Shown one piece after another: positions 48,003-63,828 of a stretch of 64,000 nt of DNA. Numbering within the stretch: the first letter of the stretch is position 1; each line of letters starts with the position of its first letter. The stretch comes from Escherichia coli. Its GTDB lineage: Bacteria > Pseudomonadota > Gammaproteobacteria > Enterobacterales > Enterobacteriaceae. The position numbers and the translations under genes are program-made. The stretch lies in the NCBI RefSeq assembly GCF_003790525.1, contig NZ_CP033635.1; one strand, 5' to 3'. The notes beneath the pieces are model-generated. The model had not been told where the DNA came from. It made no database searches and saw only the letters and a list, made by a program, of their open reading frames with translations.

Positions 48003-48764
48003 TTACCGCCACATGGCGTGTTTATCGCGATAGCAATCGACCCACATCGCCGTCGCGCCACAAACGGCAACGGGCATAATGAACAGATTAAGCAGCGGGA
48101 TCATCGTAAACAGGCTGGTTAAAGCACCAAACTGCATATTGGTGATTTTGCGTGTGCGCAGGGCGGTGCGCATCTCTTTAAACGGCACTTTGTGGTTATC
48201 GAAGGGGTAATCGCAATACTGGATGGCTAACATCCAGGCGCTAAACAGGAACCATAGTACCGGCGCGACGGTTTGCCCAATACCAGGGATGAAGTAAAGA
48301 ATTAGCAATACAATTGCGCGCGGCAGATACCAGGCAAATTTTTGCCATTCGCGTTTCATGATTCGCGGCACATCTTTCATGATACCGAAAATCCCGGTAT
48401 CTGGCGGTGTAGCGCCAGTCAATCTTGCTTCCAGTTGTTCAGCCAATAAACCGTTGAACGGAGCGGCAATCCAGTTAGCAATCGTTGAGAAGAAATAGCC
48501 AAACACTAACAGCACGGAGATGACTGCCAGAGGCCACAACAGATAGCTCAGCCATTGTAACCAGTCCGGAACATAACTCATGAGCGTCGGGATCCAGACA
48601 TCGAGCTGCGTAAATAGCCACCAGAATGCGCCCCCCATCAACAAAATATTGACCAGCAGCGGTAAAATAACGAAACGCCGAATCCCAGGTTGCGAGACGA
48701 GCTTCCAGCCTTGCGCAAAATAGTAAAAACCGCTGCGTGGGGCAGATGTGAATGATGAAACCAT
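48003..48764 (-). CDS. cysZ: Sulfate transporter CysZ
   Basis: 253-aa membrane ORF upstream of cysK. Confidence 0.9.
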
Positions 48765-48993
48765 AATCAGGATGAGCTCCTTTTGACCAATCCCAGGAAA
48801 ATTCTGCGTATTTTACCGGGTAATTGCGCAATGGACAGTTAGGATATGTTCGAAAAAACAGCAAAAAGCACGATTTCATCTATCTTTGTGCTGTGAAAGT
48901 TAATAGTGCACTTGCACTTGAGGTAATCGGCAAATACTCTTAGTGAGTAAATGTTTGCCGTGGTGGCAAGGTGTTAGAACAACAGAGAATATA

Positions 48994-49992
48994 ATGATGC
49001 AGGATTTGCGTCTGATATTAATCATTGTTGGCGCGATCGCCATAATCGCTTTACTGGTACATGGTTTCTGGACCAGCCGTAAAGAACGATCTTCTATGTT
49101 CCGCGATCGGCCATTAAAACGAATGAAGTCAAAACGTGACGACGATTCTTATGACGAGGATGTCGAAGATGATGAGGGCGTTGGTGAGGTTCGAGTTCAC
49201 CGCGTGAATCATGCCCCGGCTAACGCCCAGGAGCATGAGGCTGCTCGTCCGTCGCCGCAACACCAGTACCAACCGCCTTATGCGTCTGCGCAGCCGCGTC
49301 AACCGGTCCAGCAGCCGCCTGAAGCTCAGGTACCGCCGCAACATGCTCCGCGTCCAGCGCAGCCGGTGCAGCAACCCGTGCAGCAGCCTGCCTATCAGCC
49401 GCAGCCTGAACAGCCGTTGCAGCAGCCAGTTTCGCCACAGGTCGCATCAGCGCCGCAGCCAGTGCATTCAGCACCGCAACCGGCACAACAGGCTTTCCAG
49501 CCTGCAGAGCCTGTAGCGGCACCACAGCCTGAGCCTGTAGCGGAACCGGCTCCAGTTATGGATAAACCGAAGCGCAAAGAAGCGGTGATTATCATGAACG
49601 TCGCGGCGCATCACGGTAGCGAGTTAAACGGTGAACTGCTTCTTAACAGCATTCAACAAGCGGGCTTCATTTTTGGCGATATGAATATTTACCATCGTCA
49701 TCTTAGCCCGGATGGCAGCGGCCCGGCGTTATTTAGCCTGGCGAATATGGTGAAACCGGGAACCTTTGATCCTGAAATGAAGGATTTCACTACTCCGGGT
49801 GTCACTATCTTTATGCAGGTACCGTCTTACGGTGACGAGCTGCAGAACTTCAAGCTGATGCTGCAATCTGCGCAGCATATTGCCGATGAAGTGGGCGGTG
49901 TAGTGCTTGACGATCAGCGCCGTATGATGACTCCGCAGAAATTGCGCGAGTACCAGGACATCATCCGCGAAGTCAAAGACGCCAACGCCTGA
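48994..49992 (+). CDS. zipA: Cell division protein ZipA
   Basis: ORF trimmed to ATG 48994 ([28 protein letters not shown] anchor); P/Q-rich linker; C-terminal FtsZ-binding domain. Confidence 0.88.
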
Positions 49993-50021
49993 TACACTTA
50001 AGGCAAATTAACTCCTTTTCG

Positions 50022-50046
50022 AACCCCCGCTTGTCGGGGGTTTTTA
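50022..50046 (+). terminator. Rho-independent terminator/attenuator between zipA and ligA
   Basis: Stem aacccccg / cgggggtt followed by ttttt, 17 nt before ligA ATG. Confidence 0.6.
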
Positions 50047-50053
50047 GCATTGA

Positions 50054-52078
<2,025 letters not shown>

Positions 52079-58753: not shown

Positions 58754-58757
58754 ACAT

Positions 58758-58833
58758 TGGTGGGTCGTGCAGGATTCGAACCTGCGACCAATTGATTAAA
58801 AGTCAACTGCTCTACCAACTGAGCTAACGACCC
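58758..58833 (-). tRNA. lysV: tRNA-Lys (anticodon UUU)
   Basis: Reverse complement is a 76-nt cloverleaf ending CCA with anticodon loop CUUUUAA. Confidence 0.95.
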
Positions 58834-58837
58834 GAAG

Positions 58838-58913
58838 TGGTGGGTGATGACGGGATCGAACCGCCGACCCCCTCCTTGTAAGGGAGGTGCTCTCCCAGCT
58901 GAGCTAATCACCC
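58838..58913 (-). tRNA. valY: tRNA-Val (anticodon UAC)
   Basis: 76-nt tRNA, reverse complement GGGTGATTAGCTCAGCTGGGAGAGCACCTCCCTTACAAGGAGG...CACCCACCA. Confidence 0.95.
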
Positions 58914-58959
58914 ACTTCGGTACTTCACATTTTTACAAGAAATTTAGCTGGCGAGAAAG

Positions 58960-59035
58960 TGGTGGGTGATGACGGGATCGAACCGCCGACCCCCTCCTTG
59001 TAAGGGAGGTGCTCTCCCAGCTGAGCTAATCACCC
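58960..59035 (-). tRNA. valX: tRNA-Val (anticodon UAC)
   Basis: Identical copy of the tRNA-Val sequence. Confidence 0.95.
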
Positions 59036-59079
59036 ACTTCTCAATTTCTTGCTACACGGCGGAGACTACATAAAGTAGT

Positions 59080-59155
59080 TGGTGGGTGATGACGGGATCG
59101 AACCGCCGACCCCCTCCTTGTAAGGGAGGTGCTCTCCCAGCTGAGCTAATCACCC
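59080..59155 (-). tRNA. valU: tRNA-Val (anticodon UAC)
   Basis: Identical copy of the tRNA-Val sequence; first gene of the operon. Confidence 0.95.
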
Positions 59156-59172
59156 CCGCTGTGTGGAGTCGC

Positions 59173-63602: not shown

Positions 63603-63678
<76 letters not shown>

Positions 63679-63717
63679 AATTTTGCACCCAGCAAAATTT
63701 GTACGTAAACGCATCGT

Positions 63718-63793
<76 letters not shown>

Positions 63794-63802
63794 AATTTCA
63801 AA

Positions 63803-63828
63803 CCCTCGCTGTAAAGCGGGGGTTTTTT
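63803..63828 (+). terminator. Rho-independent terminator of the tRNA-Ala operon
   Basis: Stem ccctcgc / gcggggg (one G-U pair) followed by tttttt. Confidence 0.7.

Follow-up and report, generated by a model that had tools for sequence, protein, structure and literature searches.

Natural length alleles of the Pro/Gln-rich ZipA tether in Escherichia coli and the short direct repeats at their endpoints

The C-terminal linker of FtsZ and the tether of ZipA are disordered, low-complexity spacers in essential division proteins, and their length and sequence vary by species. The FtsZ linker belongs to a different protein and differs in composition from the ZipA tether. ZipA of E. coli K-12 binds the C-terminal peptide of FtsZ and is essential for division (PMC8669495, PMC6904479). 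Its P/Q domain is assigned to residues 86 to 185 of the 328-residue K-12 protein in PMC6904479, which cites Ohashi et al. (2002) for these limits and for a tether that is flexible and without structure. In a published model (PMC6904479) the tether is a flexible chain that determines how far the FtsZ-binding domain can extend; PMC8669495 deals with the globular domain only and has nothing on the P/Q linker. ZipA and its P/Q tether are thus textbook features, and the 332-residue allele described here has a RefSeq accession. A literature search of limited coverage found no prior description of a natural zipA length polymorphism, which is weak evidence of novelty.

The window, the 64,000-nt stretch of E. 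coli DNA that was analysed, contains the same gene as K-12 with the same order of transmembrane anchor, charged region, P/Q linker and FtsZ-binding domain. The window protein differs from K-12 ZipA by an extra QPVQ (4 residues) and by R120H and S152P, which are the only amino acid substitutions and both lie in the linker. A closely similar described process is the classical replication slippage of E. coli, in which direct repeats give rise to short-homology (RecA-independent) deletions and duplications. The zipA alleles resemble it in their endpoint repeats of 7 to 11 nt, in the retention of one repeat copy and in the occurrence of reciprocal tandem duplications, and differ in that the zipA case is reconstructed from natural alleles alone.

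The gene and its domains are laid out as follows.

48994 to 49992, plus strand: zipA coding sequence, 332 residues plus stop, the "332-aa" major allele (open reading frame with Pfam and TIGR02205 matches)
49012 to 49077, plus strand: N-terminal transmembrane anchor, residues 7–28 (hydrophobic run; domain limits from PMC6904479)
49078 to 49248, plus strand: charged segment, residues 29–85, near-invariant among Escherichia species (alignment; limits from PMC6904479)
49249 to 49560, plus strand: P/Q-rich linker, residues 86–189 (P+Q 55%)
49585 to 49956, plus strand: C-terminal FtsZ-binding globular domain, Pfam ZipA_C, residues 198–321 (Pfam match)

The Pfam ZipA_C domain (PF04354) matches residues 198–321 with E = 3.2e-46 and 156.8 bits (cut-off 23), and the NCBIfam equivalog TIGR02205, "cell division protein ZipA", covers residues 4–324 with 416.5 bits against a cut-off of 119.65. 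Upstream lie cysK and cysZ on the minus strand and downstream lies ligA; the conserved enterobacterial order cysZ–zipA–ligA is also what RefSeq annotates at identical and related loci. On these domain matches and the location between cysZ and ligA, the gene is assigned as zipA. The C-terminal domain of the encoded protein aligns to that of K-12 with an identical protein sequence. The open reading frame delimited mechanically on the plus strand runs from 48943 to 49992, begins with GTG and would give a product of 349 residues. The zipA start is the ATG at 48994 (MMQDL...), not the upstream GTG, and gives a gene of 999 nt and 332 residues. This sequence is 100% identical to the 999-nt zipA annotated by RefSeq in strain 2016C-3878. 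The GTG sits 51 nt upstream of the annotated ATG (48943–48993). By coincidence, E. coli ZipA proteins of 349 residues do exist (P0002, P0003); their extra length comes from 51 nt of the linker duplicated in tandem.

A single N-terminal transmembrane helix, as expected of a bitopic ZipA with its N-terminus outside, is predicted from the hydrophobic run, and AlphaFold2 places a helix at residues 2–31. The domain structures solved by crystallography and NMR (1f46, 1f47, 1f7w and others) span residues 189–332 only, and the 144-residue chains of 1f47 and 1f7w align to exactly this range. PDB entry 9iue holds the full-length 328-residue ZipA sequence in 18 chains. AlphaFold2 assigned residues 32–196 no secondary structure, with pLDDT values of 34–51, in a model that is weak overall (mean pLDDT 48.8, 7-sequence alignment). 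Because the whole model is poor, the low confidence in the linker is weak evidence of disorder.

The composition of the linker sets it apart from the remainder of the protein. Residues 86–189 consist of 29.8% Pro, 25.0% Gln, 15.4% Ala and 9.6% Val, and the eight most frequent residues elsewhere in ZipA include neither Pro nor Gln. In 20-residue windows the P+Q fraction is 0.40–0.70 from 81–100 to 161–180, and 0–0.15 up to 61–80 and from 191–210 onward. The codons of the tether are almost all CAG or CAA (Gln), CCN (Pro), GCN (Ala) and GTN (Val). The low-complexity Pro/Gln-rich run that the preliminary description placed at 49250–49560 corresponds to residues 86–189, 55% of which are Pro or Gln.

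The same description had the run encoded by imperfect short repeats, and this was borne out in part. A repeat search found three units spaced by 12 nt at 49360, 49372 and 49384 that are 74–79% identical to a reference copy at 49300, together with scattered repeats of 8–13 nt elsewhere in the linker. A tandem array is absent: Tandem Repeats Finder returned 0 arrays over 48900–50050 at a minimum score of 30. Ranked by repeated 8-mers, the linker is 6th among 637 segments of the window, and the higher-ranked segments appear to be tRNA gene clusters. Linkers with shuffled codons reach about half of the observed repeat count, with p = 0.0135 for 6-mers and 0.06–0.12 for 8- to 12-mers, and residue identity shows a modest periodicity at lag 4 (z = 2.4). 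Because codon shuffles alone yield about half of the repeats and Tandem Repeats Finder returned nothing, the repetitiveness of the linker is mostly compositional low complexity and not a defined repeat array.

Internal repetition within the window is highest at 58755–59160 on the minus strand and at 63603–63805 on the plus strand. One has four copies of a unit of about 84 nt and the other two copies of a unit of about 88 nt. By sequence appearance both look like clustered tRNA genes (e.g. GGGGCTATAGCTCAGCTGGGAGAGCG...).

Comparison with K-12 confirmed that the ZipA of the window, put beforehand at about 332 residues and slightly longer than the K-12 protein, exceeds the 328-residue form by exactly one 12-nt QPVQ unit. 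The two proteins are 99% identical, and zipA of the K-12 derivative MC1061 is 987 nt long, encodes 328 residues and lacks the QPVQ at residues 123–126. The indel lies in the following pair of units.

49360 to 49383, plus strand: CAGCCGGTGCAG followed in tandem by CAACCCGTGCAG, units of 12 nt that together encode QPVQ-QPVQ, against a single unit in K-12

Protein and DNA alignments both give a single 12-nt indel, with CAGCCG-GTGCAGCAACCC-GTGCAGCAGCCT in the window and CAGCCG-GTGCAGCAGCCT in K-12. Because the 8-nt repeat GTGCAGCA flanks the gap, with copies at 49366–49373 and 49378–49385, the start of the 12 nt absent from K-12 may lie anywhere from 49366 to 49374. The 11 other nucleotide differences between the two zipA genes are all synonymous. 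Within the window the two QPVQ units have diverged at 2 of 12 bases, which makes the duplication an old one. At the QPVQ site E. albertii and E. marmotae carry QPVQQPQPVQQP, still longer in the alignment than the window sequence. Since these two species retain the longer form, the K-12 allele is most simply a derived deletion of one unit, the window strain having gained nothing.

The distribution of the two lengths was surveyed with a 211-nt query (49270–49480), which matched 5,427 records in a set of 5,426 complete E. coli genomes; zipA is present in 5,425 of the 5,426. Identity to the query was at least 95% in 2,378 records, and all 26 sampled rows of this class with full query cover span 211 nt. 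A further 3,048 records are 90–95% identical, and all 33 rows sampled from them span 199 nt, the signature of the 12-nt gap. Taking the identity classes as a proxy, with the span read from the sampled rows, about 44% of the 5,426 complete genomes carry the 332-residue type and about 56% the 328-residue type. The 987-nt form is found in K-12 derivatives, BL21 and one O111:H11 strain, and the 999-nt form in O157:H7, CFT073 and the ST131 strain ZH193. Because length tracks strain background in the sampled strains, the two major lengths look like stable, inherited alleles, and about 99% of complete genomes carry one or the other. The 332-residue form is thus a normal major allele.

The remaining genomes carry larger changes. 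The query was covered to less than 80% in 63 records, and these were resolved with concatenated 40-nt junction sequences that are unable to seed on the parental alleles. A first set of junctions explained 31 of the 63 low-coverage genomes. Another 30 were matched by a second set, which drew on other sequence backgrounds and contained the ML775 junction, for a total of 61 of 63. These 61 genomes (about 1.1%) hold eight alleles of 295–314 residues with in-frame linker deletions, listed here by protein length.

300 residues: 84-nt deletion, 30 genomes, including O103 strain ML775
309 residues: 69-nt deletion, 22 genomes, including ZH063, SaT040 and an O25:H4 strain
308 residues: 60/72-nt deletion, 3 genomes
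305 residues: 69-nt deletion, 2 genomes
295 residues: 111-nt deletion, 1 genome (EM10-18-28)
303 residues: 75/87-nt deletion, 1 genome
310 residues: 54-nt deletion, 1 genome
314 residues: 54-nt deletion, 1 genome (strain GF43)

All deletion variants that were inspected carry an intact-zipA annotation. Three duplication junctions were also searched in the complete E. coli genomes and none was found; the rare duplication alleles, of 349–375 residues, come from draft assemblies only.

The prior proposal that the linker is length-variable across strains is upheld by the alignment and the genome survey, which show several lengths where one identical length in all strains would have been the alternative. 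Repeat number as the source of this variation accounts for the step from 332 to 328 residues, which is one QPVQ unit, but not for most other variants, which lose or gain 17–37 residues between scattered repeats. A true VNTR or contingency locus would go further: a defined unit would expand and contract often, and linker length would change rapidly and reversibly within lineages. The exact 12-nt difference between the major alleles, the three units at 49360, 49372 and 49384 and the weak lag-4 periodicity fit such a locus. Set against them are the lack of an array in Tandem Repeats Finder, with only two to three degenerate 12-nt units present, the marginal excess of repeats over codon shuffles, and the divergence of the QPVQ units at 2 of 12 bases that marks them as old copies. 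About 99% of complete genomes sit at two lengths that track strain background in the sampled strains, the other alleles use different scattered repeat pairs and segments of 51–111 nt, and the frequent variant alleles are each found on one sequence background, so copy number does not vary freely among close relatives. A contingency locus is therefore very unlikely.

Public protein sequences extend the series. The E. coli ZipA clusters in the protein database run from 298 to 375 residues, and the full-length alleles from 301 to 375. The 298-residue entry was rejected as a length allele because its N-terminus is truncated in the gene call. Distinct alleles in the database number at least 20 for deletions and at least 5 for duplications. 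In pairwise analysis the in-frame length differences of 17 residues or more fall within residues 87–184, and the indels outside the linker are of 1–3 residues only and lie in the charged region. With the 332- or 328-residue sequence as parent, most alleles are reproduced with 0–4 residue mismatches by one in-frame deletion (54–93 nt) or one perfect tandem duplication (51–81 nt); the public proteins include tandem duplications of 17–27 residues. In the collection, 1,861 blocks list the 309-residue allele and 478 list the 308-residue allele.

Three database proteins (P0013, P0015, P0113) contain short internal stretches that are out of frame and then restored, as in compensated frameshifts, each on a single contig. 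These are most likely sequencing or assembly errors and not alleles. Together with the 349-residue product that the mechanical reading frame gives from the GTG at 48943, they are what would recommend reading the length differences as artefacts of start-codon calls, assembly collapse or expansion, or sequencing errors. The indels, however, are internal to the gene, where DNA alignments show them directly. Closed, complete chromosomes contain them, and a single allele can be found in 22–30 independent complete genomes and in hundreds of assemblies. The repeats involved are only 7–11 nt, far too short to confuse an assembler, and what lengthens the 349-residue database proteins is a genuine 51-nt tandem duplication and not a GTG extension. 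An artefactual origin is accordingly the least credible of the readings weighed here and borders on the negligible.

The endpoints of the deletions coincide with direct repeats in the window, positioned as follows.

49288 to 49296, plus strand: GCGCAGCCG, left copy of a direct repeat, endpoint of the 69-nt deletion (309- and 305-residue alleles)
49357 to 49365, plus strand: GCGCAGCCG, right copy, partner of 49288–49296
49309 to 49316, plus strand: CAGCAGCC, first copy, endpoints of the 60/72-nt (308 residues) and 111-nt (295 residues) deletions
49381 to 49388, plus strand: CAGCAGCC, second copy of the direct repeat
49420 to 49427, plus strand: CAGCAGCC, third copy of the direct repeat

The endpoint repeats verified in DNA are of 8, 9, 8, 7, 11 and 2 nt and are assigned to alleles below.

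328 residues: GTGCAGCA, 8 nt
309 and 305 residues: GCGCAGCCG, 9 nt
308 and 295 residues: CAGCAGCC, 8 nt
300 residues: CGCAGCC, 7 nt
310 residues: GCCGCAGCCTG, 11 nt
314 residues (strain GF43): CG, 2 nt, against the slippage pattern

The DNA alignment of the 349-residue allele shows a perfect 51-nt tandem duplication. Endpoint homology was compared with a null consisting of all 2,777 possible in-frame deletions of 54–111 nt in the linker. The mean over 20 deletion alleles is 5.5 nt against 0.66 nt for the null (Mann–Whitney p = 8e-17), and homology of 7 nt or more is found in 8 of the 20 observed alleles and in 0.5% of the null. For alleles known from protein only, the placement with the most endpoint homology was chosen, which biases the statistic upward; the DNA-verified subset has the same pattern. 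Because endpoint homology is so far above the null, we infer that slippage or short-homology recombination between direct repeats generated the indels.

Sequence backgrounds bear on how often this happened. The 309-residue alleles lie on the ZH193 (ST131-type) background with 0–1 mismatches, and the 305-residue allele lies on a different one, with 8–9 mismatches to each of three full-length reference alleles. Since the two alleles are on different backgrounds, the GCGCAGCCG pair was used at least twice, independently. The 300-residue allele has 2 mismatches to K-12.

The best explanation, and one held with high confidence, is a disordered P/Q tether whose length varies by repeat-mediated in-frame indels. 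The Gln, Pro, Ala and Val codon makeup, rich in CAG and CCG, fills the tether DNA with many direct repeats of 7–11 nt. Occasional strand slippage or short-homology recombination between such repeats would delete or duplicate the DNA between them. As zipA is essential, purifying selection would pass only the in-frame products. The tether would act as a spacer and not as a folded domain, so that a change in its length would be tolerated and strains would come to differ in tether length. The 328-residue K-12 allele most simply arose by loss of one QPVQ unit, and the window holds the major 332-residue allele with two.

Constraint across related proteins is consistent with a spacer role. In an alignment of seven Escherichia ZipA sequences, variable or gapped columns number 45 of 106 in the linker and 6 of 228 elsewhere (odds ratio 27, Fisher p = 6e-20), and all gaps fall in the linker. 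Among 107 apparently full-length representatives of the ZipA family, the spacer between the anchor and the C-terminal domain has an interquartile range of 135–180 residues and is 162 residues long in the window. In these 107 representatives the median P+Q fraction of the spacer is 0.13 and the extremes are 0 and 0.36. The representative closest to the window has the maximum of 0.36 and, among those listed, is the only one above 0.25. On these family comparisons, a long spacer is the conserved feature, and P/Q richness is not general. Because both range widely across the family, spacer length and composition appear free to drift. Length variation of the tether is what is expected of a low-complexity, disordered spacer, real but ordinary.

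E. albertii has a shorter linker allele of its own, so the same kind of length variation occurs in a sister species. The proteins concerned (P0080 and P0110) are of 321 residues, 10 below the usual 331, and are found on 3 and 21 contigs, respectively.

Selection could in principle tune linker length, if the 23-residue (ST131-type) and 28-residue (including O103 strain ML775) deletions altered the spacing between the Z-ring and the membrane, or the surface crowding of ZipA, and were favoured where they occur. The two alleles do reach appreciable frequency, with 22 and 30 complete genomes and, for the 309-residue form, 1,861 blocks, and in the published flexible-chain model the tether governs how far the FtsZ-binding domain extends (PMC6904479). 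Each frequent allele nevertheless sits on a single background, which clonal hitch-hiking explains equally well, and spacer length varies widely in the family without an obvious pattern. Selection for particular lengths is therefore considered improbable. The related proposal that tether length is a selectable trait, with recurrent repeat-mediated indels as a source of standing variation in how far the FtsZ anchor reaches, is similarly doubtful; if it held, the 309-residue (ST131-type) and 300-residue (ML775 lineage) alleles would contribute to the fitness of these successful clones and not merely hitch-hike. The data do not favour lineage-specific selection over clonal hitch-hiking.

The 22 genomes with the 309-residue allele, which has lost 23 residues, include ZH063 and OZ039818.1 and carry it on the ZH193 zipA background, and ZH193 itself has the full 332 residues. 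The 23-residue deletion could serve as a lineage marker. The 30 complete genomes with the 300-residue allele, which has lost 28 residues, are about 5.3–5.6 Mb in size, come from human, bovine and food sources and apparently constitute one lineage.

The length polymorphism leaves the understanding of ZipA unchanged. The detail it adds is that the K-12 allele is most simply the derived one, that about 1% of genomes carry large in-frame deletions attributable to repeats, and that rare tandem duplications exist. For annotation, E. coli ZipA lengths of 295–375 residues are to be read as real alleles of an essential gene and not as errors. The natural alleles also constitute a ready-made deletion and duplication series, from which tolerance of tether length change can be inferred: of the roughly 104 linker residues the cell appears able to lose at least 37 (295-residue allele), and it appears able to gain 43 (375-residue allele).

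Other frames and the minus strand hold several open reading frames of 66–101 residues across the linker (49129–49595; e.g. 49220–49525, minus strand, 101 residues). They were taken as non-genes and as by-products, because their Arg/Ala-rich, low-complexity translations are typical of G+C-rich repetitive DNA within a well-supported gene. A promoter and terminator consensus scan of 48700–50150 returned no promoter-like site and missed a hairpin that follows zipA.

50021 to 50043, plus strand: in the zipA–ligA interval, a G+C-rich hairpin with a T run after it (RNA fold −14.9 kcal/mol, z = −3.1)

This hairpin is probably an intrinsic terminator and probably that of zipA.
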